From Mytilus trossulus (lineage: Eukaryota), in contig NC_086386.1 of NCBI RefSeq assembly GCF_036588685.1, positions 18,042,001 through 18,106,000 on the forward strand: DNA of 64,000 nt, read 5' to 3'. The translations under genes and the position numbers were made by a program. Positions 3,101-36,031 of the stretch are shown piece after piece (the first letter of the stretch is position 1; each line of letters begins with the position of its first letter). Under the pieces are notes generated by a model. It did not search any database and was not told the origin of the DNA. It saw only the letters and a list, made by a program, of their open reading frames with translations.

Positions 3101-6100
3101 TTAAGGCAGTTTCAATTTAGATTTGAAATACTTGTAAATCATTTGAAAACTTAACTATCATTTCTTTTCTCAAGATTGAAAATGTTTTCGTTTATTTCTT
3201 TCCGATCAAATATAATACTATTTTCATACTACCTAAATAAAAGACAAGGTTCATGTACTTACAATGAATACGTAACCTCTTTCAACTTCGGTTGCTTTTC
3301 CTTATCATTTGAATCTTTACTTTCCGATGTTGGTAGAACCTGCAAAATCCGTTTTGAAAGTAACATGCATTTCTTTTAGGCTCATAACATATAATAACCT
3401 TCGTTATATCCTAGCATTTTGTTTTATTTCGTAACTCTCGATATGTTTCTAAATCATACTATACAACAAAAGAAACACATAATTTATAGTCTGAGATAAT
3501 CATAGTATTTAATGTATGTAATGGAAAGTATCCGGGGTTAGACTTAATAGAGCAGTTTGCATTCAATGGAAGAGCCTGTTATCCAGTAGTTGTTGGTTCT
3601 TTGCCACATGTCATAACTGTTTTTTGTTTATTTCACCAATTGATTGACTTTTTGATTGTCGGAGCCTTATATAGCATATTCAACGGCAATATGTATGTTG
3701 TTTTTTGCAGGTCGTGTTGTGACCTGTGGTTGTTTTCATCTTTCTTGTCCTGTGGTGCATTGGTTAATAAATGTGGCGTCTACAATCGCTACATCTGCTT
3801 ATTCTAATCAGCGGGGTGAGGAAAATCCGACCACATTTAGTACAGAATATCTTTTCTCTATGTTGATGTAATACATTAATGTAGAACGACTGAAAGGGAA
3901 AAGGAGCGGGTCTGCTGAATGTCTGCATATAGCAATTTAGTGTCTCAATACCAAATCACAATACACATTGACAAGCAACATGCGTTTGATTGGAAACATC
4001 ATACCTGTATAGTGTTATGAAATACATACTACTTTCCATAGCAAAAACTAGCGAAATCCGAATAAAACATTGTAATCTACAAACGAACCTTTTTCTTATA
4101 GAATGATTCAATTATCTGGTAATCAGAAATAGCTTCACTGGCTTTGTTTTTCATGTCTGTGAACTTTCCCTTTTCTGCAAGTTTGATAAGATCTCGTAAG
4201 CCTTTCACCTTTGAAATATAAAACAGTATTGTAACAATTAATGTAAAGGACCGTGAGTTTCTAGAGGTTGAATTGATTGATGTTTTTTCGTCATTCAAAA
4301 GATGTCATAGGCTTGGATTTGTAAGATCGCTTGAAGAGATTGAACTTTTTATATACCTTCAAATACCGAGATGAGCGCCATTAATGTTTTGTCTATTAAA
4401 AGAATGTGTACCAAATTAAAATCAGCTATTTCTTTTGTTGTATATGAACATGTTTAAAATCTATTTTTGTAATTGTCAGTTACTTTGAACTTTTGATTTT
4501 TCAGAACTTCTAAGAGCTAAGTATATTTTCTTTTGCATTCTGTTTGGAAAACATTATATATCTATTCGAGCTGACTTTATTTTTTAAACTCAAGTAAAAC
4601 TGTGAAGATACCGCGTTTTATTTATTTTGTTTCTGGACATTTTTATTTTTTTTGGAATTTCATTTTAAAATAAGATACATTTCTTGTCTAAAAGATAACA
4701 GGATTTTTGCTTCTGAATGTTTTTGAGAAGTAAATGGGAAAAACTAGCATTCTTCGTCAAGAGATCAATTGTCAGAGGCTCAATGACTTTGTACTTAGAC
4801 GACGAAAGTATTCAAAATATACATTTATTCACCAACGATGGAATAGCATTTACTGTATTTTGATCAGGTTAATTTCGGACGTATGTTGTTTAAACTAAAA
4901 CATCTGATATACACAACAATTTTGTTCTGCGCTTTGCTTAATGGTAACATCTTTACAATTTGTTTCATACTTTGTTAGTTGCTTGTAAGTTTTGCTTGAG
5001 CATGCTTAAGATAATTAATCTCACATTTAATTCATCGATGAGTGGAACATTATTTATGATGTCGTCGATAGCAGAAGACGCCCTTTTAGCATCGCCAGCA
5101 GTCGGGTGTGCAACCGGTTTTTGAACATCGTGGATAAATCTGTCCAGAACTGAGAAGGAAAACTGTAACTAAAATTGCAAAATAAAAAGTGAATGTTATA
5201 TTAAGGTACAATTTTATTATTAACCATTTTATCAAGTCACAGTGATACATTGAATATTACTACGAACGAAAAGCAATAAACATTATAACATGTCGAAAAT
5301 GTAAAACGAACATCACCATGTGTCGTCAAAGTAAAAATGTTATATTGAAAAATCAACACAAAGCTGCTACTAAGACAATCATAACTGGAACAGGGAAATA
5401 AAAGTCGGCTCAATTATAAAAAAAAAAAGGATACTTAAACACCGAGCTCCAAGAAAAAAATCAACCGGAAAGTCCCTAATCAAATGGCAAAATCAAAATC
5501 TCAAACACACAAAACGAATAGATAATAAAAAGTAAAATCACAAAAATACTGAACTCCGACAAAAATTCAAGAAAGAAAGCTCATCAAATCGCAAAATCAA
5601 AAGCTCAAACACATCAAACGAATGGTATACAAAAGTCACCTTCTGGACTTGATATCTATGATCATGCCTGCCCCTTATTGATATAGGGTTAGAAATCAAC
5701 AGCTAATTATCCCGTAGAATTAGTTACAGCACGCTTAACAGTTTTTATACAACTGAAGAACGTAATTCTGATCGCTTTTGTCAATAACTTATAATTTAAT
5801 TTACAATGAGATCGGCTACTCCTTATGTAGTTGGGCAAACATCACCACTCAAACCTCAACTACTTCTACTCAAGTACCATTACTTATCATAGATACCGTG
5901 AATACAGTTTGCTGGGTATGCTAAGGATCTAAATGTTTATTGAATATTCGTTAGTTTAAACATATTTTCTTGTTCAAAATGACAAAAGGATCAGACACAA
6001 GTTTTACAACTTAGTAACGTCTTCTCCAAAACAAATACAAAAAATACACATTAATTAATGAACATATGAAATATTTCTTACTAACAAATAATTTAAGAAT

Positions 6101-6411
6101 AAAGACATGAAAACAAAAGGAAACTTTTTGAAGCGAATCAATGGATTTTAATCGAGTGCATCCTTTTACAGTATAAATACGACACAAACACACCGAATAG
6201 TTAGTGGAATTACCTATACCTATAACAAAGAAGGACAATGTATGACGAACATTAGAATTTTAAGTGTATCAAAAACTGATGTTGTACTATATTATTTCAT
6301 TCTAGAAGGTGAAAAGGTTGCAAATTTTTCAACTTGGAAAACACCCAAACAAATATTGATTATGAAATACAGAATAAAATGATTATTTACATTTCGACTT
6401 ACTTTTGACAT
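171..6411 (-). CDS. G1: MIEAP/SPATA18-like C-terminal domain protein, N-terminal class A, ~386 aa, 9 coding exons
   Basis: Hand-spliced GT-AG exons: 6411-6403 (MSK, tentative), 5162-5025, 4208-4089, 3339-3263, 2985-2869, 2619-2409, 1852-1748, 1159-1061, 455-171. These join into one open frame of 1161 nt. Motifs NPMITDISDTNRPTKVAEQFSALYDNEWTDAF, CIEICWFMNVLDPPMVLKW and VWSALLFYDQGPLVVKGV match my recollection of the MIEAP domain. Confidence 0.85.
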
Positions 6412-6909
6412 TATTGTAATTCCTTCTTTAACTGATACTTAAATACAACCTACGTTTGAAACACAAATGACTTTAATCTAATAGTATCTTTACCAGCTAT
6501 TTAAATACATGTTATCTTTTGATTAATCAATAAAATATAATAATGGATGGTATTTAACAGATTGGCAGTAACAATACAAGTACCAAATATATATAAATAA
6601 CGAACATTCATTTGTGCATAGCAAACTCAAAAGGTGAATTGGTGAATTGTTTTGTTTTGAAACTTGTCTTCATCATTATATTGTTAAACTAAATTACAAA
6701 TTAAGCATGTCTAGATACTAAATGATATTACCTTATATATACTTTGTTGTTAGGATTACATAAATCGCTATTTTTTTAAAAAAATATAGAAATAATTTCG
6801 GGTCCTCAAGACACTTTAATTCGTACTATATTTGGCCCTTATAACTTTTTATTTGAGCGTCACTGATTAGCCTCTAGAAGACGAAACGCGCACCAGGCTT
6901 ACACAATAT

Positions 6910-7202
6910 TTAGTTTAAACATATTTATTTATAGTGGATTGGGAAACAAGTTTTTGCAACTTATATTAATCCCTTTCCACTTTGCGGGTGCGAGTGCTGC
7001 CTTGTAGCGGCATTAGCCTACTCTTTTTCGAAATCTACAAGGGTGTCTTTAACGTGCAATAGATGTGGCTCTCTCTTAACACGGGTCAGCCATTTATCGT
7101 CCCTTTCCGACGGACTATCATCGTTTCCTCAAGACCATACTCGCAGATGGTGTCAAGGGAGAGCCGAAAATTGAGTTCCTGAAATTTCCATCCCAAACGG
7201 GA
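6910..7202 (-). mobile_element. 5'-truncated copy of the same SINE
   Basis: Aligns by eye with 44080-44360. Contains TGCACGTTAAAGACACCCTTGTAGATTTCGAAAAAGAGTAGG on the minus strand, reminiscent of Deu/Nin SINE cores. Confidence 0.65.
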
Positions 7203-8904: not shown

Positions 8905-9090
8905 GTTATTCTCGTGGTGTTTTGTCTGATGCTTGGTCCGTTTCTGTGTGTGTTACGTTTCGGTGTTATGTCGTTGTTCTCCTCTTATATTTAATGCGTT
9001 TCCCTCGGTTTTAGTTTGATACCCCGATTTGGTTTTTTGTCCATGGATTTATGAGTTTTGAACAGCGGTATACTACTGTTGCCTTTATTT
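8905..9090 (+). repeat. Interspersed repeat family 4 (…GCGTTTCCCTCGGTTTT…TTTTGAACAGCGGTATACTACTGTTGCCTTTA)
   Basis: Further copies at ~60176-60340, 17770-17860, 60870-61150 (tandem partial pair) and, reversed, 30533-30670 and 32195-32320. Confidence 0.75.
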
Positions 9091-9647
9091 ATTGCAACAG
9101 AAACTGCTGATTCCAGTGGAGGAGCACTAACATTCAACACGGGCTTATGTTAGGTTTGTTTTGCTCATTCTATAATTATATGTGTGGCGTTTTTTTTTTT
9201 ATTGCAGTTAGTCTCTTGTTTTTGTTTGCTCATGGGTTTGTTTTGACTTGAAGAATTTGCTTACCTACTTGTCTTTGCCTACTTATATTTTGTTTAAATT
9301 AAATGTTGAACTTAAAATCGCTGTTTCTTATGAAGCCATATTTTGTTATAATCGTCTGGATAATTAAAAGGAATAAATCTCACTCCCTTCTGAATTGGTA
9401 CAATTGATTCATGAATAAATATATGATTTTTTTCAATTATTTGTTTAAACTTTTTTTGAGAAAAAAATTAATGTAAAAGTGAATCTCAACAATCGTAGTG
9501 TGGGAAGATAACTATTAAAAAGGTTGCTTATACATCTTCACGTCATTTCAGATCAATCACTGCGCAACGTAATTAACGACAACGGAAGTGAAATATTTAC
9601 GACCTCATTAGTGTATACGAGTTTATTACATGACTAAGCATTCGTAA

Positions 9648-12600
9648 TCATTTCAGCTGCACCACACCTCTAACCATAGTTGGTCCACCCTCATTTAATA
9701 ATAAAGCTGGCCATACACCATGGTCAAAATCAGTCCCAAATTTTGTAAAATATCTAAAGTAATGAAATAATTTGTCTTTAGTTGCATCTGATGGCCAAAC
9801 AAGCACCATAGGAGTCTCCATTACATTGATATTCCATGAAAATTGAGAACAATTGTCAATGAAATTATTCACTTTGTCCAAGCTGAGATATGGTTTGAGC
9901 TGCCGAGAAATCTGCGTTGCTGTAAAGTCCTGTGGTAATACAAAACACGAATGATATCAATAATAACGGAGTCATAAATAAATAAAAAGATTCCTTTCTA
10001 TTTGTTTTCGCAAATATAATCTTGATTATCAAAAAGCTTCCATATTTCTGATTTTTTTTTTTACAAAGTTCATATCAAAAACTATTGGAGATCCGACGAG
10101 AGATAAAGGCAACAAAAACGTAACGATCTGGGGCCGGTTGTTCAACTTGTCGTTAACTTAACGGTAGCGTTAGCCTTAACGTGTCGTTAAAAAGTTTAAC
10201 GTGGCGTTACTTAACGGAAGGTTAAAAAGCTGTTGTTCAAGTTGATTTAACGGTAGCGTTAGCTAACGTGACCGTTAACAAATCTTAACCTGTCGTTAAA
10301 TTTTAACTATGGTTTAGAGGCTATTTTAGTTACCCATAATTCAGATTTTCTGAACTTCCCCCATAAACAAATATGGCCGACTTGTCATCTGCTAGTGCAT
10401 GCAATCAGTCTAATGCTAAGAAAACAAGGGAAAGAAAGCCAAATTTTTCAGAAGCAGAGGTAAATCTTCTCCAAGATGAGGTAGAAAAGAATTATGCAGT
10501 CATTAATGACAAATTTGGAAGTTCTTTGACAAATAAAAGAAAAACTGCAGTCTGGGGAAGAATTTCAGTGATGGTGTCTTCTCTTGGTGTTGCCCATAGG
10601 TCAGCCAAGGAGTGTAAAGATAAATGGGGCAACACCAAGAAAGAGGCAAAGAAGATCTTTTCTGTAAACAAGAGAGACCAGGGGAAAACAGGTGGTGGAC
10701 CACAGGCTAAGCCAGTGAGTGTGGCAGTGCACAGAACCATAGATCTGTGCAAGGACTCTGCTTCCTTCAAGGGCATAGGAGGTGTAGAAAGCTGCATCAT
10801 TGGTTAGCAAAATTTAACGGAGCGTTAGTGCTAACGACAAGTTGAACAACCGGCCCCTGATGTTACTGGCTGAGAAACGTCCCCCATTTTGTGATGAAAA
10901 TACTATGATGGGGTATAGTTTTGGGGATCATATGAAAATTCATTTAAATGTTTTAAGCTAAACTAGCTTTTATTTGATAAATTTTATACTTATGTCTGCT
11001 TCATAGAAAAATACTTTCTTTTTATCCTTATGTTATACTATATGAATACCTCGATCTTATGTGTTCAAATTTATGAAAATAACTTTTTTTCAATTTTGCA
11101 ACATTTAAATCTATGTCAGGCTTACCCTTTCGGAGCACCTGAGATCACCCTTAGTTTTTGGTGTGGTTGGTGTTGTTTATTCTTTAGTTTTCTATGTTGT
11201 GTCATGTGTACTATAGTTTGTCTGTTTGTTTTCTTCAATTTTATCCATGGCTTTGTCAGTTTATTTTTGATTTATGAGTTTGACTGTCCCTCTGGTATCT
11301 TTCGTCCCTCTTTTAGACTGAATGTTTCATCATAATACAGTTCACTTCAATAACTATCTTTTTACAGTTCACATTGTGACAATTCTTCACTTATATGTTT
11401 TTATTCATTCTAGTTTCAATGGTCAAATAGCTATAAACACAAACATAAATGTCTAATACTGCAATATGTACGATCATCATACTATCCTGGAATTTTACCT
11501 TTATTAATAGTGGTAGACTGTAGCGTATTGTATCTCTCACTGCCATCCTCGCATATGGTAAAACTGTTTGGTATTCTCTTTCAGTTGTGTTCACTGTCTT
11601 TGTTGTCTGAAATATACACAAATTAGTTCAAATGCATGACTAGCAGGAATTTGATTCTCAAAACTTGGTATACAATTTCATAAAAATAATTTTGAATGTT
11701 TTTTGTAAAAATCAATAAATGCTCACATGTATATTTCACAAAAATCGAAAGAAAGATCATTGCTGTTTTGCTGTTGGTTTGTTATTTGCGTGCGTAATGT
11801 TTGTTTTCTATTCACCTATAACTGTGTCTGTCATAAAAGTTTATTCTATGTTAAAATAAGTAGACAAAAGTCCAAATGGCGTACCAATTGAAAGTCAACG
11901 TACGGATTTTTACATTGAGCAAGGTAATATGGCATTGCAAGATTTAAAGGACCCGAAATACTATGTAATTATATCCTTATATTGCCAATTTTAGTTTTAG
12001 GTATTGTCTGCACTATGTATGTTGTATAAAATAACGTAAATAAGAAAAATATCCCTATATAAAATTCATACCTCACTGCCAAAGTCAGTCGTTCAAATAT
12101 TCTAACTGACTTTTTTTGTCCTTTTTTACTGAGTAATTGTAGCTGTCCGTCTTTGATTTGATATCTTTATATGTTTTGCTACCTACGTCATGTGTAGAAT
12201 TAATAACATACCAACTACAACTTACAGATGCAGGTGTTCTACTGGACTTCTGCTTGACGATGATTGGTTCTGTGACTATTTTTGTCATGACAGTTGTCAT
12301 TTGTTTTACCTGATTCGTTACCTTAATCTTAAAATAGTCAAATACAAGCTGCAAAAAATAGATATTGTACAGGTGTGATTACATATTATGTTGACACAAT
12401 GTATATAATCTCCAATTTACATAATTTGGGTCGTTTACAAAGTATTTTCAATAGAACATTAAAATTGATAGGAAAATATTTGGACAAAAGTGATTTTCAA
12501 TTTTCTTAAGGTTGACTTGCCTACTATCTTGTTTGTTCCATTTAAATTATTAGATTCAGACATGAAAGATATTTCATAATGTGTATAAGGGAAATGTAAA

Positions 12601-15463
12601 GCAAAAATGGGAACAAAAATTATAGAAAACACAAAACGAGATTTATATATGCATTAACCAGTAGTGGATTTTTTTTATTTCTGGTAAATTTTATTTATTC
12701 ATACTTGAGTTAGTGTTGCTATATCTTTTATTATTTCTTCGTCTTCCTTGTCGTCGATGAATTGTTGTTTTGCTTGGCTGAAGGCTTCTGACCAGTAAAC
12801 GTCGTAAATAACACAAAATTGTTTTGCCATTTGTGTAGGCATAGATTCTTCAATGCATTCTTCCGCAAATTCATTGTCGTATTTCAGGACTTCTTCAGGC
12901 TCAATACTGAAACCAGTTGTGAAAATATTCACACAGTTAATTTCAGTAGATAACATAAGTTTATCGTGCATTTCAGAACTCTAAATTGTATACCATTCTA
13001 GTTTTAAAGTGCTCATTTAGTCTTTTAGTCTTTTAGTTTGTTAAACGACAATGCGATGTGTATATGTATCAGGTTATCGAGTCAAACACAATTAAAGAGG
13101 GATGAAAGATACCAGAGAGACAGTCAAACTCATTAATTGACAATAAACTGACAACGCCATGACTAAAAATGAAAAGGACAAACAGACAAACAATAGTACA
13201 CATAACACAGCATAGAAAACTAAAGAATAAACAACACGACCCCCTCCAAAAACTAGGGATCTCAGGTGCTCCAGAAGGCATGTGGCACCCGTCGTGTGGC
13301 TTATGAGATAACAAATCCGGTAAATGGTCTATTTCGGTAGGTCACATTTATGAAAGGGAAAGGGACTGTAGTTATGATATAAGGAACATATTCGATATCA
13401 TTTGTGTAAGTTGCTAAGACTGTACGGAGTACATAATCTAAATGTAACAAAAAGTGTTTATGTTCTTACCCAAATCGTAATAAAGCAGATTCCTTCCAAA
13501 CATCAAAATTTGCAAGCTCTATACTTGATGGTTTGTTCAACTTGGACTCGACCGTATCTCTCTGGAATATAACATTGGAACATTCACATACCATAAACTA
13601 TTTTATGGCTTATTAAACTTAGTCTAGTTACAATTGTATTATGTTCACAGGTGCGAATCCAGCCATTTATAAAGACGGGATTCCTCACCAAAGATATAGG
13701 GGATTGAACTATATGTCCCGATTCAAATTTATTGATCGTTAAAATAAAAAAAGGGGGTTGCTTAGTCTTTCGTTTTTTATGTTGTGTCATTTGTATTATT
13801 ATTTGTCTGTTTTGGTTTTTTTTCATTATTAGCCATGGCATTGTCAGTTTACTTAAGTTCTTTCAGTTTGACATTCACTCTGGTATCTTTCTTCCCTCTT
13901 TTCCGACCCCTGCACTCCCGTGGATCTGCACTGGTCCACATTAAAAGTAAATTAGTCTAAATATGAGAGGAAAGTTGTAACTGATATACCTTCAGATATT
14001 TACACTCTGCAGCATCTATCTCCACACAGGCAGCCAGTACAGTTTTCTTCACTTGTTTCCATTTTCTGTTCAGCACTAATGTCAGAAATTCAAATACCAG
14101 TTTAACCTGAAAAAAGTATTCCTCAATTAGAATATACTGTATCCAATTTGTTGAATTAAACATTTACATTCGATGAAATATCATTAGATAATAAGCAGAC
14201 TACTTGAATCAAACTAAAAATATCTCTCCTTCCTTCATTTCTTCCTTTCTTTATTCACTCAAAGCAAGAAATACATTTTGTCTTAGATTTTAAAAATCGT
14301 TTTCCCTACACAAAGTAAATCTTTAAGTTAACTTCGTTTTCAAGAAGAATCTGAATTTGCATATGATTTGAACTATTTTCCACTTGTATATCGTATAATT
14401 CCTTATTAAAGAACAAAGTTTACGACACTGTGTAGTCTACATACATCATTTGCTATTTCTTCATTGATACTAATGATGGTCTGTATACTTGAAATGGCTC
14501 CCTCTGTTTCTGTTTTGGTTGGATACATTTTAAATGTTATCTTCGACCTAAGAAGTTTTTTACACTTCCGAAGAAAAGTTTCTAAATTGCTAAATTCATT
14601 CTCTAACTGTAAATAGATAAACTATAATTAAAATTAGCATTCATTTAAATTAGACAACATCTATAAAACAGCCGTTTCAAAGAAGACCAAGCTCAACTGT
14701 TTATATATGTACTCAGTGCTGGGGAATGACTGAGAAATATATCAACAGATTCTCCAGATTCCATAACACATGTCTGAGGAAGGTTATGAAAATATGCTGG
14801 CCAAACAAAATCGCAAACAAGAACTAAATGAGATAACAAACACCAAAGACATAGAGTCTTTATTGATACAAAAGATATGGAGATGGCTTGATCACGTACT
14901 ACGCAAACCATCTAAAAACATGAGCAATTTAACCCTTAGATGTAAACAAGTAGAAAAAAGAAAAAGAGATGGACCAACAAGCGACATGGAGACGTACTAT
15001 AGAAAATGAATTAAAGGAAAGAAGTTAACTGAGGTACAATAGAAAGAAAACCAAACAATAGATATAGAGAAGAGTGGATATACTTGCCCTATCCCTATGT
15101 GCCAAACAGCTTGGCAAGGACTAAATAAGAAAGTAGTGAAAAGTATGTCACTGACAATAATGATGAACATGCAATGTTGAAAGTGATAATGAAAAAGTTT
15201 CGAATCAGTGATGTCTTTGCTATAGAATTAATGAAGTATTACACAATTTTATTTTATTTAATTATGGACAAATTTAATTTTCTTAATATTGAAAGAGAAT
15301 TTATGTTCGGCATCACATGCGACACCTTTTATATCCCAATTCAAGATGATAAGTTAAAAATCAGAATAAAACAACTATGATTTTATAACCGCGGTGTTTT
15401 CATGACTACATGTACCTGTTGAAATATCCTTTCTTCCTCATCTTCTATGGTATCTACTTCCAT
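9648..15463 (-). CDS. G2: MIEAP-like domain protein, class A, ~377 aa, 8 coding exons
   Basis: Exons 15463-15416 (MEVDTIEDEEERIFQQ), 14606-14445, 14106-13990, 13561-13470, 12906-12705, 12348-12226, 11606-11499, 9929-9648. All GT-AG, open frame of 1134 nt. Motifs FCVIYDVYWSEAF, WNINVMETPMVLVW, VWPALLLNEGGPTMVRG. Confidence 0.85.
10131..10856 (+). mobile_element. Non-autonomous (internally deleted) PIF/Harbinger DNA transposon, 726 bp
   Basis: Perfect 25-bp TIRs GGGCCGGTTGTTCAACTTGTCGTTA at 10131-10155 and 10832-10856. 3-bp CTG target duplication at 10128-10130 and 10857-10859. Palindromic TTAACG..CGTTA subterminal repeats and an internal Myb/SANT ORF; no transposase. Confidence 0.9.
10373..10807 (+). 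CDS. Harbinger-associated Myb/SANT-like (trihelix) DNA-binding protein, 144 aa, probably C-terminally truncated
   Basis: RERKPNFSEAEVNLL...KRKTAVWGRIS..VSSLGVAHRSAKECKDKWGN..K...KTGGGP is the typical Myb/SANT-like DNA-binding signature of Harbinger ORF2. It lies between the TIRs and ends at a possible donor (G|GTTAG) about 50 bp from the right end. Confidence 0.85.
   Translation: MADLSSASACNQSNAKKTRERKPNFSEAEVNLLQDEVEKNYAVINDKFGSSLTNKRKTAVWGRISVMVSSLGVAHRSAKECKDKWGNTKKEAKKIFSVNKRDQGKTGGGPQAKPVSVAVHRTIDLCKDSASFKGIGGVESCIIG
11119..11313 (+). repeat. Interspersed repeat family 3 (GGAGCACCTGAGATC…TTTCTATGTTGTGTCATGTGTACTA…CTGGTATCTTTCGTCCCTC)
   Basis: Further copies at ~13095-13300 (reverse), 13760-13900, 32680-32775, 37370-37495, 52165-52372 and 57290-57450. 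This family is the source of several spurious hydrophobic ORFs. Confidence 0.8.
14640..15135 (+). mobile_element. RTE-clade LINE 3' fragment in G2 intron 1
   Basis: The degenerate translation FHNTCLRKVMKICWPNKIAN / WRWLDHVLRKP...LRCKQVEKRKRDGPT resembles the C-terminal part of RTE ORF2 (LRW.GHV.R...GKR.RGRP); frameshifted. Confidence 0.75.
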
Positions 15464-16072: not shown

Positions 16073-19000
16073 ATGGACAGACAGAAGGTATGTAAAAACA
16101 TTTTGTAATATTATTATTGACAATAACTATGAATAACAATAATAAATGTAAGCATTACCAGCTTCATCAATTTACACGATTTGATTTGATTTGACTAGTT
16201 ATGGGATGAATATACTAATCAATTGAAGAATAATGATATGAATTTTAAAAAATAAAACTCGAATCATAAAAGATATCACTTAAAAAATTAGGTCACTTCA
16301 TAAAGCAAAACCTTCAGTTTACCGTCAATAACATGGGTTATTAAAAATTTATGTTTCATTGTTTCATTTAATTGTTGATAATGAATCTCTAGGGTTTTCT
16401 ACATGTCATTTTGTTCTTGTTGATAATTTTCATGTAAGCTTTGTCTTTCTGATAACCCTTTTGGTGATTATAAATTTCTAGACGGTTGAAACACATGTGA
16501 AACCATTTATCAATTGTAGTCTTGGATTTAAACATTCCTTCTACTTTTAAAAACATGGGAAATAAGAATGTTTCACTTAATGATTATAATGTGGCATCAA
16601 ACAAATTAGGCCTCTAATGCAGACATGTTCGGTGATTGTGTCCTTTAAGACATTACTCAGCAGCTTGTACTGTCTGGTGTAGTGGACACAAATTTATAGT
16701 CTTGCATATATTTTGTATGAATTTTATACTAAATCAGAGATGAGTAGGTTTGATCAAATTTTTACGACTTAATTACAATTTTCAGATAAATCTAGCTTTT
16801 ATTCGGTTAGAACATTTCTTAGAACAATGTGCGAAACTGAAGAGACCAAATCCGCCAAGTTTGCCAACACCAGAAATGGCGAAAAATATTCGGGACGAAC
16901 TTGTATTTCTTTTAGACAATGTCCAGGAAATTACTTGTGACGATGTAAGTATCGAACAATAAATGATACTAATACGTGTACACAATAAAAACGGTAATAG
17001 AACTACATACTGCACATTTAAAAAATACCGTTACACAAAACCGAGGTTGGTTTTCATCGACCTAATAACAGTTGTTTTATTGACTTCATGGATACAAATG
17101 TTTGATGAAATATCGAAACGACAAACAACTTATGTATAACAGAGTATTATGGCAGATGTGGAAAAATTACTATACAACACGTACCAATAGTTTAAAGTTG
17201 TAGGGAAGTACTTCAATAGACAAACATCATGTAGCATGTCCATTTACCATGATTTTAAATTGGTTTAAAATGTGAAAATGATGAAAATCTACTAAACACA
17301 ACAAAATTTGACATTGTGTAGCATTTTGTAAAAAAAACAAAATACAATAAAATAGATATCAGCCACTGTTGTAGTTAACCATATTTTTGTACTCATATTA
17401 TTTATGTTTCTTCTTTGAATTGTTTCATATCTAATTTACTTTGAAATACTCATTTCAGTTGCCATCTGTACTTGAAGTTGTTACAAACGCCAGAAAGAAC
17501 GATATTCCCGGTATTCATAGATACAGTGATAAGGCACTAGAAGAATTCTTGATAGCAAGAAGTAACTTTATTAGACGGGTATTAATTATCTCTATATTAA
17601 TTAAACACATAGGAAAGGGGGGATATCACTATTTTAAAGTATAAAAAGAATTTCAATATATCAGAATTCTAGCGACGTAGGAGAATGGATTCCAATGTCA
17701 AGTAAGGAATCTGGCATGCTTGCCAATGAGTTTATTTCAAATGACGTGGATGCAATCATATATAATGTGTTTCTCTTGGTTTTAGTTTGTAACCCATAAT
17801 TGTTTTAGTTTGGTGTCGATTTATGAGTTTTGAACACCGGTAATATACTGTTGCCATTATCTATAGGTCACCTGGCATAACTTTTTATATAAAATTGAGA
17901 ATGGAAATGGGGAATGTGTCAAAGAGACAAGAACCCGACCGTAGAAAAAAAACAACAGAAGGTCACAAGAAGGTCTTCAATGTAACGAGAAATTGTCGCA
18001 CCCGGAGGCGTCCTTCAGCTGGCCCCTAAACAAATATATACTAGTTCAGTGATAATGAACGCCATACTAATTTTCAAACTACATCTACAAAATGTTATCG
18101 CAAAAATGAGTTAAATCAAGCTGAATTCAAATTGTTCATATTGTGATGGGTTTTTATTTTTATTTCTTACGCCAAATGAGTAACAGTTATTTCATGTTAA
18201 TTTCAGGCAGATGTAAATACTTTTAACGGATTTGAATTTCCGCCTACTGTGAAACCAACATTCATTAAACCCAAAGAAACTAGTAAAGTAACCGAATGGC
18301 GTCAACAGGGTGAAAGGGAGAGGTATGATTATAAATTTGCATACATTTGTATCATCTGTTTTAATAATATCGATAACAAAATCAATAAATACATATCTTA
18401 TTGCATGTTCCTGAACAAGTTAATTTAGGATATTCCCAAATGGTTGCCTTTTGTCCTCTATTGCATTTGGTATTGTTTGCATATCCATGATGGTAATGTA
18501 AAATTTATTCGTTTTTAGATAACGCTTATCTTTTATTGAAAACGTTCTGTGAATCTTAAGATGTATTTGTGTCGTTAGGTTGAAAGTCATTTCGTACCAT
18601 AAACATTTCGTATCTCTGCCATTTCGTGCCCAACATACCCATTTCATTTCCAACTTTACCGTTCCGTCCCCATGATAAAAAGCATTACCTTCACATGTCA
18701 TTATTTCCTGTCGCATAACTTGCTTGACTGTGTTTCCCGTGTTTGTTTTTACTATATGTCCTTTTATTTAGGTTTTGTTATTCTACTGGTTTAGATTAAA
18801 AAGAGAAGAGTTGAAATCTTTAAAAAGATAACAAGTTGACCAAAGTCTAGTGATTTCATATTTTCATGTGCCTGTCTCAAGTCGAAAATCTCGTCGGAAG
18901 TTATCCGATATCACGTTTTTATTTTTTTCGTTCATTAGAGAATTCAATCTTTAATAATGGCATATATCAATCTTTTCTGTTTAAGTTATTACCCAAACTT

Positions 19001-21360
19001 TTGTTTAGACAAAATACAACTTAAACTTGTTGTTGTTGAGGCCATTGGTGTACTATTGTTGTCGTTCTTGACGTATACTCCACGTCTGATTGTGCTGATA
19101 CAATTAATACAAGTACTTGTTATTAATTGCCTTTTTTAAACATGTTTAGCTCGAACCAGTAGGTTTTTCCTTTTGTAAATCTTCTTTATTATGGACTTTC
19201 CGAACAGATTTTCCTCTAAGTTCAGTATTTTTGTGATTTTACTCTTCACTTATTGAAGATAATAAAACCTACCCTTTGATACCTTACTATACAATTTGTG
19301 TTTTGTTCATTGTTGAAGGCTTAAGGTATCTTTATGGTCATGGACGTTGTTTAAAAATCTTTATGCATTAATCTTATCTAATCAATTTGCAATCCCATCA
19401 TATCTTCTTGATTTTTCATTCATGCAAAATAACCATAAATTGTATAAATTTTTTTCTCTATTCAACCATAAGTTCATCGATTTATTTTGACTTGCAAAGG
19501 ATAGAAACAAGGTTGAACAACAACCCAAACATAACAGACCTCAGCGATATGAACAGACCTACCAAGGTGGCTGAAAAGTTCAACAGTTTATATGATAACC
19601 AATGGACAGATGCATTTGAAGATCTGAGAAAACTTTACAAGCATGAAATAAACGGTCAAGAAAGAGCCATTTCAGAAATGGCCACCATCTTAAAGGTATT
19701 TTATTTATAATTTTTTATCTGTAAGTAAACGTTTCAGAACCACATGAAATATATATTACATACATTTATCAATACATGTCGTTAGAAAAGATTTGCACAA
19801 TAGTAACTTTTCATTTGTCCGATTATTTCTGAAGTCGATTTTTATATTAATATTAAAAATACTCTAATTTTTGTACAGAAGGCATTTGAATATACAGCGG
19901 AAACTGCAGAAAAACAGACTCGTAAAATAGCCATGTCCATGAAAGAATTAATGATTAGTCCAACTGGTGATTCATTTATTAACAACGAACTTGACAGTCA
20001 GGTAAAACTTCTTAATTTCATTTCGTCTTTTTCTTTCTTATTCGATCTTATTGAGTCGTGGGATAGCCATTTAGTTCAATTTAACTAAAACTAGAGGTAT
20101 GTTCACCTATAGTCATTTGTTAAAAAACACACGTTTTCGAAAACAATAAAATTGATTTGTAATCTCAGACTTAATTCATAATGTGATACAAAATTAATAA
20201 ATTCTTTTGAATTTCTTATAATATCTTACCTCAAAGTTTTAACGGAATTGCCTTTTCTGTGTTTTTTTAATGTTGTTTATGAAGAAATTATGACCTTTAT
20301 TCAGATGACTGTAGCTCTTGAATTGTCTTCTCTATTCCAATAATTGTGAAAAAAAATCTTTGGTTTTTGTTTGTTTCACATTTATTAGGTTTATGAATTA
20401 TTAGTATTTGATTTTTAGCATAAACATGTTGATATTGACCCGCTTTGTGAGGTTCGTTTCACAAGATATGCAAAGCAGTGTATAAAAGAAAATGCAGAAT
20501 TGAGCCTGCCAGTATTACATAAGGTATTCGGTTAAATTCTTAAAACATATTTTGTAAATGTTTTCATTGAAATGCATGTTTTACCAAACAGTACTGCCTC
20601 TTGACAAAATTATGGATGATAAAAAGAAATGTGCAAGAAACATGAACCCAACACACATGTACACTCGTTTTCTACTGGAGATGCACGGAAAGAAGAAAAC
20701 CTCTATTTTTTATAAACTTTGTTTTTATTACATTCGCTTTGCGTTGTAAGGTATATAAACATACTAAAGAATTTAGATAGAGATTACAGATAAAAAGTCT
20801 GTATTTGACCATATGTTTTGGACAGAGTGTAATAATGTCATAGGGCGAAGACAATATTCCATTGCCACTGAAAATAAGTAATACAGGCACAGTTAATATA
20901 TATAATCTTAAAGTTAAAAAGGTACTAAAATTAATGTGTTATTCAAAGGTCAAATTGTTTCATTTGTATACCCTATGCGACGTGATAAACAGAAGTTCCA
21001 TATCATTTATTTAATTTAAATCCGATACTTGGAGGGGACATGACATACGGATAATTACATTGTATGTTTTGCTTTTAGAATTTTGAATGGCAATTTCGCC
21101 GCGAGCGAATTAGAGATATTCTTACAATTCCAAGTGTAAAATCCTACAGCCAAAAGTGTTTACAGATAGCGTGGTTTATGAACATTCAAGATCCACCCAT
21201 GACCCTTTTATGGCCAGCTGATGTGAAAAGGGGTGATATAACAGCAACTTTTAGATTTTTTACGAGAAGCGGAACGATCTTACAACATGAGGTGTGGCCG
21301 GCCTTACTGCTGACTAGTGATGGTCCGATGATGACAAAAGGGGTGGCTCAGTTCAAATAA
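16073..21360 (+). CDS. G3: MIEAP-like domain protein, class A, ~371 aa, 8 coding exons (only + strand copy)
   Basis: Exons 16073-16087 (MDRQK, tentative), 16786-16944, 17459-17578, 18207-18322, 19500-19695, 19879-20001, 20419-20523, 21079-21360. All GT-AG, open frame of 1116 nt. Motifs NNPNITDLSDMNRPTKVAEKFNSLYDNQWTDAF, WFMNIQDPPMTLLW, VWPALLLTSDGPMMTKGVA. Confidence 0.88.
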
Positions 21361-23411: not shown

Positions 23412-26400
23412 TTAATTCCTAAATTTTGCTACGCCTTTAACCACCATAGGACCATCTTTGTACAACAGAAGTGCTGGCCAAACTTCATGATCAAGGACTG
23501 TTCCTGTTGCAGTGTAGTATCGGAAAATGTCTGTTAAATTTTCCTGTGAAACCATATCTGGCCATAACAGTACCATTGATGGGTCTTGAACATTCATAAG
23601 CCATGTTAATTCTATGCATCTTTCTGTGTATTTTTTCACTGATGATAATTTTGTTATATTTGCTGTAACTTTACTACTTGGAAAGGCGTGGACCATGAAA
23701 TTCTATAAAAGAAGAGTTCATGTTAAACAATTATGTAAATAATCCTTGCAAAAATACCATTTTGGAATCACAATATTTGCTTTGTGAATTACTTTACCAT
23801 TTAAAAAAAAATGATTCCAACAACAACATATGATTGTTAAATAAATATAAGAAGATGTGGTATGTGTGCCAATTAGACTACTCTCCATCCAAATCACAGT
23901 TTATAAAAGTAAACCGTTAATGTCTTTATCATTAAAATTATCTTTTTTTTAAATCCTCTAATAAAATATTTTTTTCTTGCGAAACGCTTAAAATATATAA
24001 ATATATAAAGAGAAAAAAAAAGATTTTTTTGCAGATTTTTCTTCAACTGGTATTAAATGTCTTTGACAATTAAATATAAATATAAATAGTGCATGCATAT
24101 CAAAATGTGCAACATTGCATATTACCTTTTGTAGAGCAGGAACACTTAGATCAGCGGTATCCTTTATACAGATCAATGCATACTGTCCAAGTGTCTTGTC
24201 ATGTCGAAATGGATCGTTTGAATCTGTCTGTAAAACAGTTACACATAATATTAACAACTCAACTGTGGTTTACTTATTCTAAATGAATACAATGTGTTTT
24301 TAAAAATATACAATGCTAGGCATTGATTACTGTACATCAAACAGATTTATGAATGTTTAAATGAACTTCTGTCGCTTTTTTTCGGATTTAATATGCATGT
24401 TTTGTTAGTAGCTATATAACGTTCTATTAATTAAGTAGGAGTCAAACAATAAATACCTGAACCTTAAAGGGAAACAAAGAAAGCATGAAGCAGAAAGAGT
24501 TCGTCAGTAGTTGTCGATTTTTGGTGTGGTTTACCAAGTGTTTCTGGTTTTTTGTTTTTTTCTATAATGATAAGTCAGTTGGTTTAACTGTTTGCATCGT
24601 TTTACGCTATTCATTTTGGTGCCTTTTATAGCTTGCCGTTTGATGTGAGCCTAGGCCGTGTTGAATGCCGTACTTTGTCCTTAACTTGTTTCCTTTTTAT
24701 AGATTGTGACTTCAAATGACAGTTATCTGATTGGCTCTCATACCATGTCTTCTTAAGTCTATGGATATTAAAAACGCTTTCCCTTTTAGAAAGATGGAAA
24801 ACAAAATGAATAGAACTATTGATCTACAAAAAAACATACCTCCTGCTGTCTATCACTACAGGGATCTAGCATCATTTCTCTTGTTTGATGTGCAATTCTC
24901 TCTAGTTGTGTATCCACGTGTTTAGACGAATATTCAAATGTTGCCTAAAACAGAATAAAAGTTTGCCCGGATGTATATGTAGTATATATTCATTTATAGT
25001 TACAACTTCTAATCAGTGTTATTTTAAAATATTGCATGGTAGCAAATTACTTTGATTGTTTTACATTGTGTTTCCAATATAGGGTAAATATTAATGTTCC
25101 TGAGAATTGCATGTGTAGAAAATTGATTCAGATGAAGGAAGTTTAATTATTTATTAGCTCAGCCTGTATAGAATAAGAAACTTAAAGTATATATATTACA
25201 TGCTAGTAGGTAACAAACAAAAGTGATGAAAAAAATCAAAACCGAACCAAAATGGTAGTAGTAGTTTTAATATTCTAAAGCAAAACAATAACCAAGTTGA
25301 TATTTCATATATTAAGATGCCATGTTGTAATAATAAAAGCAATAATTAAGAATAACACGTTCTATAAATGATTCCTCTGCCATTACCGATATAATTCATG
25401 ACAAATTCTTCAAATTTTTTGACAAAAGAAATAAAATTATCATTATAGTAAAACATTGTTTACCTTAAGTATAGTAGCCAAATCAAGAATGCATCTTTTT
25501 TCTGTATGATGTTCTTGTCTGTAGAATTTAGTAAGCTCCTCGCATGCATCAGTCCAAAGATCGTCATATAAATTGCTGAATCTTTCTGCTATCTTACTTG
25601 GTCTATTTATATCACTGAGATCCGTGATGTTTGGGTTGTTGTCATGAAGAGCTTTGCTTGCTTGTTCGCCACGCCTAAAATATTTGACATGTTTTAATAA
25701 TTTAAGGGTATTAGCAGTAACATTAATATTTCAATTGGAAGAATTTGTTTCTTTACGACTCAATTCACGTTGACGTTTATGTAATTAATGCACTTGAAAA
25801 TAATAGTGCAAATTTCAGGTTAAAATTTTTGGTCAAGGTAGTTTTAGATGAAGGTGAAGTCCAAACAACTTAAAACTTAGTATAGATGTTCCCTATGATA
25901 TGATCTTTCCAATTATGCAAAAATTAATTTCACGGTCACCACTTAACATAGAAAATGATAGTAGGAGTGAGCATCCGTGTACTATGGACACGTTCTTGTT
26001 TGTTTTTGAGTTTACTTGAATTTAGTCTTTCGAATTTAAACGAATTTTAATCTCATGACAAGAAATTGTTTTACCGTCTTTTTTATTAAAGGTATTGATA
26101 TTAAGAAAATAGAATTATGAATGTATTAAAAATGATGTTGTTTATGGAAATTAAAAATTTTCCACGTAGAACCCCAATTGATGTTACTAAGGTTTTTTTG
26201 TTTCGGGATTTTCTTCGTATCATGAATATATAAGAAAACACGAATACGCAATTTTATTCTATCTTTTGAAATGGCTATTGTTTATACCGTTTAAATTCTT
26301 CTTGTTGTTCCAGCCTTTCAGATGCAATTACTTCTGGGTCCGGCAAAATGGTTTCCTCTATGTTTGTATCTTCCAATTTATCTAAAGCGAGACGCAGTTG

Positions 26401-28479
26401 TGATCTGAGTTCTTCATCCATAACACCTTGTTGTTTTCCTGCATCATGATTATTTCTATGGGAATGTGAGGCATACACATCTGGAGTCTCCTGTTGTCTT
26501 GTCTGTGTCTCATTGTTATAGTTGTTTCTGTCATTATGTGTTGTATTTACATACTGTACCATTTGTGGCGACATATATCTTGTCTCGTCGGTCAACCTTG
26601 ACGGTGCTTCGTCAATCTTGCCTAACCTAGTGTCAAGTTGATTTTCTTGTTTTACGTTTTGCTGATTGGTCAGTTTTGAATAAGAAGCTTCCTTTTCAAC
26701 TTGCCGCATCTGCATCAAAATTCTTGCAAGGATTTATGCATGTACAGATTTTGTAATTATTATTTTTATGAAATTTGATATTTTTTTTTTAATTTGATAG
26801 CAAATTTCAATCGTAAACTAATGGTTGTTAGAAAGTTCATAAATAAATGATTCGAATAGTTTGAAAAAAATTTAACACTAGATAAACATTTGGCCAAACA
26901 ATAAAGGTAAGATAACCATAATGTAGTTGACTGTTTGAAGATGTCACTTTGTTACTTGATATAAATAAATATTTTTTGGTTTATCTAGATATAGACGGTG
27001 TGTTAAAATATACATACGATATCGGAATACACTCGATTGAATCCCATAAATTCATTATTAGCATCTTTGATGTATCTTGATACCCTACTCCAATCTTCTC
27101 CTTCAGCAACGTTGGTAATTTCACGTAACCATTTGGACTGTACCTGTGAATAATCATGATATTTTCTATATTCATTAGATATATATTATTTAGAAATTCA
27201 TTTGTTCTTTAGGTAATATGTACAAAAAAAAGAAAAACCAAAAAAACTGAATTTTCGAACCAGTTTCATAGTTGTTACATATATGTTCTTATAATAAGAA
27301 ATTCAATGACCTTTTAAGGAAAGTATGGATATGATTATATATCAAGCAAAACTATAAATTGTAAGACACGATTATGTGAATAAATATTTGTAGAAAAAAA
27401 AGCATGGACATTGGTTTTGATAACAGTGAATTTAATAGACAAAATTTACATAGCCATCACAATATTCTCTTTTTTTCATTATAAAGCTCATCATTGTTCC
27501 ATGTTTCGTATATGTTATGAAGCATTGTCCGTTTTATCATGATGAGTTGCAAAAAACAATTATAACTTGTAATTAACTGATCAGTGCTTTTACAAGAAAC
27601 ATCAGAAACATGGATTACTATAATAAAACATACATTTATAAAACCTCTTTGTCTAAAGAATTCGTCAACGTAAGAAATACTCCTTCTAGCAACAATAGCA
27701 TCACTATGTGACGGATGTTCCTCTACATAGGGATCTTCAAATAGGAGATTGCATTTTGTTAAAAAATTGTCAAGTTTTTGAATATCCTGAAATGCCTGCA
27801 AAGATAAGTATAGTTATTTATTTAGTGTCAATTTCAAATACGAAGAATAATAATAAACTTATACATATACACCTTATGCATAGAATATCTTAGCTGTATT
27901 TTGCAAAACTTTTAGGAATTTTGGTCCTCGATGTTCTTCAACTTGGTACTTTGTTTGGCCTGGGGTTTTTTTCAACTTTTTCGGATTCGAGCGTCACTGA
28001 TGAGTCTTTTTCAGACGAAACGGGCGTCAGGCGTATATACCAAATTTAGTCTTGGTATCTATGATAAGTTTATATACATGTAATCTATCAGTGTAAAGTT
28101 GTTTTCGAATCGCTTCATTGGTTGATAGTGTCTGATTTTTTCAATGCTTTAATGACTTCTTGTTTCTGAATTTACCTTGAAGTTCTTTTTTGTTACACTT
28201 ATTTGCAAATAAAAGAGTGGATTCTTCTTTTATATGTATAGGTTTCTTGATAAAATACTTTCATTTCCATTCTTGATCCTCAATCCAAAAAATAAGATAT
28301 TTGAACTTAACTAGTGGGTATTTTACTATTGTAAATTTAAGGTAATAGAATATATATATATTTTAATTTAATTATAATACTTATCTATAAAATATCTATT
28401 GTTATTTACGAAGAAATGTTGTGAACCCAAGGATGGGATTAGAATAAATTTTACATACCTGATGTGTCGGTTCGATCAT
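23412..28479 (-). CDS. G4: MIEAP-like domain protein, class A, ~479 aa, 8 coding exons
   Basis: Exons 28479-28459 (MIEPTHQ), 27795-27634, 27143-27018, 26709-26288 (Q/N/E-rich linker), 25674-25464, 24944-24840, 24227-24126, 23702-23412. All GT-AG, open frame of 1440 nt. Motifs NNPNITDLSDINRPSKIAERFSNLYDDLWTDA, CIELTWLMNVQDPSMVLLW, VWPALLLYKDGPMVVKGVA. Confidence 0.88.
27865..28072 (+). repeat. Interspersed repeat family 5 (GAGCGTCACTGATGAGTC…AGACGAAACGCGCGTC)
   Basis: Further copies at ~6795-6900, 30120-30162 and, reversed, 29385-29555. Confidence 0.7.
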
Positions 28480-31393: not shown

Positions 31394-34300
31394 TTAATAT
31401 CTCAGTTGTGCAACTCCTTTCACGATAACAGGACCCTGATCGTGTATCAATAGAGCTGGCCATACTTCATGTTCCAGTTTGTTACCAAATTTTGTAAAAT
31501 GTCTGAAACAGTTTAATGATATTTCATTCTCATTTGTGTTCGGCCATAGTAGTCCCATCGGTGGATCCTGTACGTTCATATACCAAGTAACCTCGACACA
31601 TTTTTGAAGGTACTTGGTTACTTTGTCTAGTTTTTGGTATTCATCGATATCATATTGTTGTATTACATGATGTCGAAAGCTTGGCGGGTTGTATCTATCC
31701 TCAAAGTCCTGTAAATAATTTAAGTATGGATTAAATCATATGTTGTTGGTAACTTTAAACACTTAGTTTATAATATTACGCATTCTATGAAAGATAAAGG
31801 AGAAAATCAAATAAAGTATTGAATTATCCTCATTGGTTAGAATTTATGGGTAGTAAACAAGATTGCAAAATATACATTGAATAAAAAGGATCGACTTGGT
31901 ACGCTCTGAAATCAATTAGGTGGATTTAATTTGATTTTTATATAAAGTAGGTGTTCTAAGCTTATTCTCATCCAATCTTTTATTTTGGAATCTTTTACAT
32001 TTATCACTAGACTCAATCTCATTACTATAAATCATCATACATGTTTAAATTTGATGCTTATATATCTTGTCTGCATATTGTGTATTTTAATGTTGTGTTC
32101 ATGTTATTTTGTATTCGGTAAAGAGCTCTCAAGAGCTTATGTTTGTATTTGTATATGTGAACAGAATCAAAATAAAACTTTCGTATTCGTATAAAGGCAA
32201 CAGTAAAATTAAGTAGTATACCGCTGTTAAAATGTCTTATTTAGATAAAGTTACAAACGTATACAAAGTGAGACACATTAACTTAAGAAGAAAACAACAG
32301 AACAACAGAAACACTGAACAGCAACATACAAAAAGCCATACTATTTGATAACAACTGCTATATTCCTAACTTGATGCAGATACAAGACCTAATTTAATAA
32401 ACTTACTTTAATAATGATATTTAGACTTAAATCAGCTGTTTCCTTCACTACTTCTCTAGCATGTCGCTTCAAGGTGTAATCATGGTGTCTCTCTTTTAAC
32501 CGAACCTATAAATGTTATAAATAACCATACTTTGATTCAAATGTTTAACTTCTTTTGATGCGCTATGCATGTATGCTTTTGGAACTTTGTTAAATGATTT
32601 AAAATAAAAACAAATACATACTAATAGTTTTGCTACTTTCAGAATTTAATTTCTCAGGTTAGATATGAGTGACATAATACAGTCTTTAGTTTTCTATATG
32701 GTGTTACGTGTATTTTGTCAGCTTATGTTCGACTGATTATAGAGAATGTCCCTCTGGTATCTTTCTCCTCTCTTTAATAGTGGACAAGTTGTTAAAGGTT
32801 AATTAAGTGAATACAAATAAAAACAGAACGACACAAAAACTTCCAGAAATTAGCATACATATTTTCCTCACATTTCAGTATTTATACTGTCTACACACAT
32901 TAGTTTTTGTTCAGTTGCCGCAATAAAAGTTAATAATAGGGTCAGTAAATATTATTTTGTTGAAAACTAATTACCGTATAAGGTGTATGTCCTGGTGGTA
33001 CAGCCATTGTATCGTGAACTCTTAATGCCATGCTGTCAATCAAATTCCTTGCTTCTTCTCGGGTATATTGAAAAGATTTCTGAATGAGAGACGAAAGCAG
33101 CGGTTTTTACAAATGTATTTCAACACTCATCAACGATTTCATTGTACAATATTTCATGTTATTTAACAAACACATTATGTGTTTTGTTTCTTTCGAAATT
33201 GAATAATTACAGGTATCTTCTTTTCTTCGCCATTGGTTGTGAATTAAAGAAAAGGATCGATCATTTTTTTTTCTGGAAGTTGTTTTTTTTCCACATCATG
33301 TACCGAATAATTGTGTATAAAATCGACAGCACAGTTCAACAAAATAATCTAACCTAACATAAATGTAGCAACACGAAAAATGGCATCTTAAGAAAATCAA
33401 ACAGTCGTCTACTAAAGTGGAATATATATCAATGACACACACAACCCAACGAAACAATTAGCCCCTAGATTTTTTATCTAGTCGTCAGCAAACACATTTT
33501 CAACCCCGCCACGTTATGTACAAATGTATGTGCCTGTCAGAAGCCCGTTTTTCATTGGTTGTCGTTGTTGATGTATATCATATTTGTTTTTCGCTTATTG
33601 TTTCACAATTGTTATTTCGGGGCACTTAATAGCTTACTACATGGCATGTGATTTGCTCATTGTTTAAAGTTATACGGTGAGAAAGATGTATATTTGGAAA
33701 TCATGCCAGATTCTTAACTTTATGCATTTTTTATTACAATACAAATAACAGGAAGGAAAAAACGGCGGTGAATACATTTGGCGGCATGTTAACATGAGAA
33801 ATATATTTTTTTACAAACGCTTTACTTGCCTTTAATATGTCGGCTAAATCAACAATTATCTTCACTTCAGGTACTCCGATTCTATTTCTGCAGACTTGTT
33901 CAAAAGCATCAGCCCATTCAACATCAAACAGTTTTGTAAATAGATCAGCAATTTTGGTTGGGTTGTTTGTTAGCACCTGAGATGGAATATAGGAACGTGT
34001 TGAAATTTCGGGAACCGTTGCAGGAATCCGGAGTTCACTATATCTGTAATAAAATGCACATATTGATATTTTCGAGAAAATTGTAATCACTTCGTCAGAT
34101 TAGAATAAGAATGTACATGTCACTACAGGATACTTTCAATTGTGCTGAGATACATTATGTCACAAATATAACGGGTTACCATTTAATGTCGGAAGTAACC
34201 CAAAAGGTACTAAAAGGGAAGCAGGATCTAACCCTTTGAACCTCCCGCTTTTATTGTTATACGTAGGCGTTGTTTAAGCACTTTTTTGTCATATATTTTT

Positions 34301-36031
34301 AAATACACTTTTTGCATTATTATCTTCTCAATACTCACCTAAGACTATAAAGTAACTGGGGGAAAATAAAGTCACTTTTTAATGCAACTTTGGTATAATG
34401 TCATAAATTCTTACATTGTATAAGGAAATTATTATTCAACTTTACCATATATTAAAACTATAGTAATTTTAAGACGTGTTCAAGTATATTGAAATGAATG
34501 AGATATCAAATGATAATTACTTTGAAAAAAATGCTCAAACGTGCCAATTGGTTCTGTTGAAGAAAAATAGTTTCACTTCAATAAGAGGTACAATCAAACT
34601 TATTTTACCTGCTTTTCATGTCTTTGAACTCTTGTTTTATAAGCGTGTTTCGGTTGACCAGGTCTTGTCCTGTTGGAGGTGGTATTTTAGTGCCAGACCT
34701 TATAACATCTAACGTAAACTCTCTATTTAGAGGGTCATCTGGGTTTCTGTTGATCCTCGTATTCATATGGTTCATACTTCCGGTTCCTTCACCATTTATA
34801 ACGTCATTGTCTGATGGTTTATTTTTCAATGTGAATCCGTCAATATATGCCGGTCGTTTTGGCAGTGGTCGAGGTGATATTTGAAAATTTGCAGATTTGG
34901 ACTTTGAAGAACTGTATAGATATTGTGGTTTACTGTCATGCAATATTCGCTGTAATACAGATAATAACTGTAGAAATGACAGTATAGAATTGTAGAAAAT
35001 CCAGAATAAAGTACATTACCTTTCATTTGTGTTTCATGTATTTTATCTAAGACAGTTTTAATATCTATAGCACTATATTTACTATGAAATATCAGAAAAA
35101 TGAAAATAAATGATGTACAGTGAAACTTAAGCTTTGTATATTTCATACAAATGTAATGTATAAAAATCGAGAAAAGATTATTTCCTTAAGAAATCTTCAA
35201 TTGTTTATCCCATTTTCTGTATCGTTGTTTGCAATATATGCGTTCTTTTCGAATCTTTATAGTCCAGCAACTTTGTTAACTGTTCAAATTCAACAATTTA
35301 AAGTTAAGCCTTTTTACCAATGTATCATAGAAAAAAAACATGCCCATGATTCACAACATACAATTTCTGAATCGTAAGTCATTTTAGATCGTCAACGAAC
35401 TAGAAATTTACCTCATCAAATGCCATTCGTTTGATTTCATTGAATTGATCTACTGCGTCATCTATTCTCATGTCCATAGATGTCCATCGTCCTCTCATTG
35501 CTTCTTGTAACATGATCTTTAGTGATTCTACCTGTATGAATGGTCAAATAGGAAATATTAAAAGGATTTTCACATGAATTTATTGTAAACATACGTCTTT
35601 AAAAAGTTGTATTGTCATTCTATTTTCGAAAGTCAACACAGAAATAAAGTCTATAAGCACATTCGAAACAAAAAAATAAAAATAGAAATAAACACATAAT
35701 AAAAATTTACATTAGATCATCCAGTTCACCATAAGGTAAAATAATAGTTCCATGAATCTTAACCTCCAGATAATTTTACATTTAGATTATTTCATAGATC
35801 TTTTGTTATTTCATCTACAGATCTGAAATTGCTTACACTCATTTTACTTTTTTTTATCCTATTTGTTTCACTTACCCTGTCTTCTGTAACACCAGGCATG
35901 TTTTTGATCAATGCATCAAGTGCAATTAATGCTCTGCCAGCCATAATTTTATCTGGACGAACGGGTCCATACTGTGGGTCCAGAAAGGGGTCAAGGAAAT
36001 CTTCCAGTTCTCGGAATATTGTGACCTCCAT
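31394..36031 (-). CDS. G5: MIEAP-like domain protein, class A, ~449 aa, 7 coding exons, one GC-AG intron
   Basis: Exons 36031-35876, 35531-35412, 34949-34609, 34043-33830 (donor AAG|GCAAGT), 33079-32975, 32505-32407, 31708-31394. Open frame of 1350 nt. Motifs NNPTKIADLFTKLFDVEWADAF, CVEVTWYMNVQDPPMGLLW, VWPALLIHDQGPVIVKGVA. Confidence 0.85.

Follow-up and report, generated by a model that had tools for sequence, protein, structure and literature searches.

A predicted four-helix N-terminal domain shared by Mytilus MIEAP proteins and HSPA12-like proteins, with a possible docking role

Two protein families that expanded in the bivalve ancestor bear on this locus: the Mieap orthogroup OG24, with 53 genes per bivalve versus 0.6, and the HSP70 orthogroup OG10, with 68 versus 4.4, according to the orthogroup figures given in PMC8382680. 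The function of HSPA12, an atypical Hsp70, is given as unknown in the relevant part of PMC13580251. In human Mieap (SPATA18), disorder first sets in at residue 92, after ∼91 structured residues, and the description of its layout in PMC10845071 runs from the structured N-terminus through a disordered and coiled-coil region to a C-terminal domain. The mussel proteins analyzed here have in common with Mieap/SPATA18 the order of structured N-terminus, disordered linker and MIEAP domain.

On the structural side, N-terminal four-helix bundles joined to more than one C-terminal partner occur in MLKL_N, HeLo, RPW8 and Rx_N proteins, and the executioners among such bundles have a conserved cationic or hydrophobic first helix that inserts into membranes. 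Up-down four-helix bundles include CheA HPt (1tqg), cytochrome b562, talin R3/R8, TLNRD1, and the FAT-type bundles of p130Cas and GIT1. An invariant His serves as phospho-acceptor in HPt domains and as haem ligand in cytochrome b562, and the talin, FAT-type and p130Cas bundles are binding modules.

We analyzed a 64 000-nucleotide stretch of the Mytilus trossulus genome (contig NC_086386.1, hereafter the window; positions are counted from its first letter). Its GC content is 32%, and it contains eight genes whose products end in a MIEAP domain (Pfam PF16026); the exons of these genes are ∼80–100% identical to annotated Mytilus proteins by tblastn. Five of them, G1–G5, begin with a common domain of ∼92 residues (88–96 amino acids) encoded by two exons (138–162 nt and 117–126 nt):

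5025..5162, minus strand: G1 domain exon 1 (helices 1-2), phase 0-0, 46 aa; leave-one-out HMM, 96% to M. edulis P0009
4089..4208, minus strand: G1 domain exon 2 (helices 3-4), 40 aa; leave-one-out HMM, tblastn
14445..14606, minus strand: G2 domain exon 1, 54 aa; leave-one-out HMM, tblastn
13990..14106, minus strand: G2 domain exon 2, 39 aa; tblastn, not among the peptides quoted in the original prediction
16786..16944, plus strand: G3 domain exon 1, 53 aa; HMM, tblastn, transcript-type contig coverage
17459..17578, plus strand: G3 domain exon 2, 40 aa; HMM, tblastn, contig coverage
27634..27795, minus strand: G4 domain exon 1, 54 aa; HMM, joined to exon 2 in four of four runs
27018..27143, minus strand: G4 domain exon 2, 42 aa; HMM, transcript-type contigs
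35876..36031, minus strand: G5 domain exon 1, 52 aa; HMM, tblastn, nearest relative of the HSPA12-borne copy
35412..35531, minus strand: G5 domain exon 2, 40 aa; HMM, tblastn

The original prediction of two phase-0 exons aligning across five genes was borne out: all 13 peptides quoted for it were found where it had placed them, and all ten exons fit, each preceded by AG, followed by GT and divisible by three in length. Leave-one-out HMMs were run on every stop-free fragment from the six reading frames of the window. Among non-training fragments, the held-out exon 1 ranked first in 5/5 cases (E 0.002–0.27, G4 being marginal) and the held-out exon 2 in 3/4, G3 coming 27th. Each of the five whole domains matched at least one paralogue at a shuffle z ≥ 7. 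The G4 joint between exons 1 and 2 was present at the predicted borders in contigs of all four transcript-type runs (one RNA on record, three presumed RNA), and five of the six variants listed for the G3 domain exons were synonymous. We conclude that the domain exists and that, for G4 at least, it is expressed.

PF16026 lies at the C-terminus of all five host proteins (E 1e-7 to 3e-16), and their last MIEAP exons are placed as follows:

174..479, minus strand: G1 last MIEAP exon; tblastn
9651..9941, minus strand: G2 last MIEAP exon; PF16026 E 6.6e-7, tblastn
21079..21357, plus strand: G3 last MIEAP exon; tblastn
23415..23702, minus strand: G4 last MIEAP exon; tblastn and transcript-type contigs
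31397..31714, minus strand: G5 last MIEAP exon; PF16026 E 5.3e-12, tblastn

Orthologues of G1–G5 score 32–61 bits against a curated PF16026 cut-off of 27, which places them in the MIEAP family. PF16026 is the only Pfam match on the full-length proteins, as it is in precomputed Pfam annotation, and their architecture is bundle, variable linker, MIEAP. Three further observations concern the locus itself. In the G1 allele of the window (174–479, minus strand), the Pro of the MIEAP VWP motif, invariant elsewhere, is replaced by Ser. A Myb/SANT-like reading frame (PF13873, E 3e-19) at 10367–10807 on the plus strand sits inside a G2 intron, opposite to the gene, and we take it to be likely of Harbinger-type transposon origin. 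The public Mytilus models P0001 and P0035 join neighboring genes (G2 with G1 and G5 with G4, respectively) and look like annotation read-throughs, not tandem-domain proteins.

Beyond the cluster, to which the original prediction was confined, the domain was found on HSPA12-like proteins and on the distant MIEAP genes P0047, P0048 and L044. Among 18 further MIEAP proteins, two from transcriptome contigs (P0047 and P0048) carry it, at 23 and 21 bits; the remaining 16 score ≤ 3.9 bits and lack it. PF16026 does not span the mussel domain, and 16 of 18 bivalve MIEAP proteins have coiled coils in its place, whereas G1–G5 have little or no long coiled coil. When two-exon joins were made blindly across 49 loci (69 852 in all), the best was that of coding exons 1 and 2 of a MIEAP gene in L044 (14.5 bits, with the next at 10.4 and the best of 1000 shuffles at 6.9), and the joined domain compares with G1 at z 8–10. 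With its intron in phase 1, L044 shows that not every copy of the domain keeps phase 0. The conserved Pro of the original prediction is invariant in G1–G5 and replaced by Leu in two distant members. In the MIEAP tree, G1–G5 form one clade (98/94) and P0048 falls outside it among bundle-less proteins, which indicates that the domain is old and often lost, or that it has been swapped. It appears confined to molluscs, and viral contigs held no relative.

The other three MIEAP genes of the window, G6–G8, lack the domain. At the N-terminus they have another module, encoded by two exons and of much the same size, whose likeness to the domain goes no further than an "A..E(Y/F)..L" helix pattern:

47173-47358 and 46738-46932, minus strand: G6 N-terminal module exons; no Pfam match
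55532-55690 and 54732-54917, minus strand: G7 N-terminal module exons; no Pfam match
62622-62777 and 61182-61349, minus strand: G8 N-terminal module exons; no Pfam match

Comparison of the G6–G8 exons with the G1–G5 domain gave hhalign probabilities of ≤ 1.6%, at shuffle level, and the two classes were therefore not merged.

A G5-type copy of the domain heads HSPA12-like gene models in two species, P0016 (XP_071124995.1) in M. edulis and P0018/P0030 (XP_063413809/10.1) in M. trossulus, where it precedes the ATPase domain. The join falls at the end of exon 2, and ATPase sequence begins directly after it. These copies match G5 at 76/91 and 69/87 residues, whereas two other Mytilus G5 records are identical at 92/92, which argues for a separate duplicated locus; within the window, tblastn found no HSPA12 sequence. 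The copy is nested in the G5 clade (97/99), and those of the two species are 76% identical to each other, a faster change than in G5. These gene models suggest that both exons were recently copied onto a gene for HSPA12.

Structure prediction gave a common four-helix fold for G1 and G4, in line with the shared helical domain of four to five helices originally proposed. The G4 model has helices at residues 2–20, 30–49, 58–68 and 72–95 (pLDDT 84.8, pTM 0.78), and the G1 model at 3–19, 27–43, 53–64 and 67–92, with pLDDT of 86–95 over residues 1–90 and a disordered linker thereafter. The domain is thus predicted to be an up-down four-helix bundle. Across seven representatives, its conserved columns hold F, L, P, A, V, W and other apolar or small residues, and no polar residue is shared by more than four of the seven. 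Between orthologues (six pairs), identity is 73–95% in the domain, 37–88% in the linker and 58–93% in MIEAP, the domain being at least as conserved as MIEAP in five pairs; between the G1–G5 paralogues (ten pairs), it is 18–31% in the domain versus 32–44% in MIEAP. Bundle and MIEAP trees recover the same orthologue groups. The core is fixed, the surfaces vary from paralogue to paralogue yet are stable within each, and no residue stands out as catalytic; together this suggests a binding module that bears specificity.

The two hairpins encoded by domain exons 1 and 2 (in L044, at L044:1127-1763) may, as a separate matter, descend from an ancient internal duplication visible mainly in distant members. 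With hhalign, three distant members against eight second halves reached 89.8%, falling to 19% without L044, 6% against G1–G5 only and 1.3% with all 14. The 89.8% comparison scored 29, versus a maximum of 14 in 60 shuffles, 6.6 for reversed sequence and ≤ 8.8 for 27 MIEAP windows, and it is only a lead because the subsets were picked after the data were seen.

The original prediction could not assign the domain to a named family, and our searches agree. Pfam searches with 12 domain sequences gave no family common to two members; Pfam, NCBIfam and PDB sequence searches with the 12-member alignment gave nothing below E 0.0096; and the ESM Atlas had no usable match for two members. When 1.84 billion representatives were searched exhaustively with a profile, 13 matches resulted, ten of G1–G5 type and three repeat artefacts (P0025, P0028 and P0029, which were dropped), with nothing resembling another family; the search missed P0047 and P0048, so its reach is short. 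Foldseek gave no match at E ≤ 0.001 in the PDB or in viral models. Fold-space neighbors include talin, FAT-type and p130Cas bundles, and the domain shares its topology with the up-down bundles named above, at 2–16% identity and with no single match standing out. The invariant His of HPt and cytochrome b562 has no counterpart in it, His occurring in at most two of seven representatives per column. The predicted fold is ordinary, and sharing it shows no function.

We favor, at a probability of roughly 45%, the reading that the bundle is a non-catalytic, paralogue-specific docking module, a G5-derived copy of which was joined to an HSPA12 ATPase by exon shuffling, allowing both proteins to find a common partner or to meet one another. 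The near copy at the head of HSPA12 proteins would make the domain a likely docking tag that connects two families which have expanded in bivalves and are poorly understood. Each paralogue's bundle surface would recognize its own partner or site, where the tethered MIEAP or HSPA12 domain would act, the long linker letting MIEAP work nearby. The G5 tag on HSPA12 would co-target the ATPase or pair it with G5, and MIEAP and HSPA12 proteins may belong to one stress or defense pathway, the weakest step of this scheme. Several points tell against docking: the fold is generic; the fusion is seen in the gene models of only two species; a chimera formed by accident and under relaxed selection would explain the faster change of the HSPA12 copy just as well; and the domain is missing from most of the MIEAP proteins compared (16 of 18, and G6–G8). 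A complex prediction for HSPA12 (P0016 20-550) and G5 (P0012), run without alignments, scored 0.01.

Somewhat unlikely, in our assessment, is an origin that the original prediction also raised, in which the domain goes back by vertical descent to the structured N-terminus of SPATA18/Mieap, has diverged from it, and has disappeared or been exchanged in many bivalve paralogues; it would face outward on Mieap condensates and recruit enzymes, as proposed for the human protein. The size of the human N-terminal region and the order of its parts match the mussel proteins, the pLDDT of G1 falls after residue 92 as in the human layout, and the domain recurs on the distant MIEAP genes P0047, P0048 and L044. 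The large profile search speaks against this origin, having returned only G1–G5-type sequences and artefacts, within its short reach. Such an origin is compatible with a docking role, yet it would remove most of the novelty; it would also give a fold and a family to the uncharacterized front end of a p53-target protein.

We consider it improbable that the domain serves as a cap within its own protein, bent back on MIEAP to hold it inactive, with the HSPA12 chimera a neutral by-product of duplication in a fast-turnover family. Bundle and MIEAP domain have indeed stayed paired in each paralogue, as the matching trees indicate, and the HSPA12 copy drifts faster than G5. The full-length G1 model (pTM 0.50), however, predicts a long disordered linker with no sign of a fixed contact, and the reading frame of the chimera is intact in two species.

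The MIEAP domain also occurs in bacteria. Intronless, bivalve-type MIEAP domains are present in Endozoicomonadaceae-type bacteria (L051:486-7984, L001:3418-4887, and L082-L089). The genome of Ca. Endonucleobacter bathymodioli has seven PF16026 matches in four reading frames, of which three form a tandem and encode four, two and one domains; the L001 protein has a signal-peptide-like start. PF16026 was found in 6 of 63 genomes of the bacterial family and in 0 of 14 controls. None of the PF16026-bearing Endozoicomonadaceae-type proteins carries the bundle, and the HSPA12 fusion P0016, used as query, had no match in five of five such genomes. Bacterial L089 was rejected as a bundle carrier, its 11-bit match lying in a coiled-coil stretch. 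Mieap is not mentioned in the portion covered of the main text on the parasite's host-derived apoptosis inhibitors (PMC11521996), and the supplements of that paper contain at least three Mieap mentions, the two listed being host proteins. The bacterial domains are likely host-derived mimics, which hints that the MIEAP family may matter in host–parasite conflict.

A bolder extension of the docking reading, which we hold to be quite improbable, makes the bundle a mobile, self-matching address that pairs MIEAP with a cognate HSPA12; MIEAP proteins would then be the missing HSPA12 cofactors of animals, in a bivalve cell-death or defense pathway that intracellular Endozoicomonadaceae mimic with captured, bundle-less MIEAP domains. 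Comparison of MIEAP with GrpE profiles gave hhalign probabilities of ≤ 0.3%, at shuffle level, from shallow profiles (25 GrpE sequences of one phylum) and a MIEAP model whose beta part is of low confidence. The cofactor role is thus supported by the shared domain only.

Very unlikely is an MLKL-, HeLo- or RPW8-like executioner bundle that oligomerizes in membranes once released and is otherwise under the control of the attached MIEAP or HSPA12 part. The predicted N-terminal four-helix bundle of similar size, the two different C-terminal partners and the fast divergence of paralogues are features such a module would share, and bundle-less MIEAP domains are found in bacteria that parasitize mussels and that, according to PMC11521996, have also acquired apoptosis inhibitors. 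Across 17 domains, however, net charge ranges from −7 to +3 and that of the first helix (first 20 residues) from −6 to +2, and the maximal 19-residue hydropathy is 0.15–0.97, below 1.0 in every case; the first helix has no consistent cationic or hydrophobic character. None of 12 members matched such families in Pfam at E ≤ 1. Among the 50 Foldseek matches listed there is no MLKL, HeLo, RPW8 or death-fold chain, though one may rank lower. The original suggestion of a 4HB-like module stands in the generic four-helix sense, without a specific tie to MLKL or HeLo. Another of its suggestions, a death fold (CARD, DED, DD or PYD), for which a helical N-terminal domain of ∼90 aa on two protein families might speak, is hardly credible, as two confident models show four long antiparallel helices instead of the six short ones of a Greek key and none of 12 members matches a Pfam death-fold profile at E ≤ 1.

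What is new here is an unnamed domain family with an ordinary fold, together with its shuffle onto HSPA12; the host families were already known. The literature searched, with subscription journals and most supplements outside its coverage, describes neither the domain, nor the HSPA12 fusion, nor any N-terminal domain of this type on HSPA12. Since the fold is ordinary and the domain apparently confined to molluscs, its reach is limited. Mieap-like and HSPA12 genes are nevertheless among the largest bivalve expansions, and the molecular job of neither is known; the shared domain, a small soluble module, points to a concrete pair in which it may be approached, G5 and the chimeric HSPA12.
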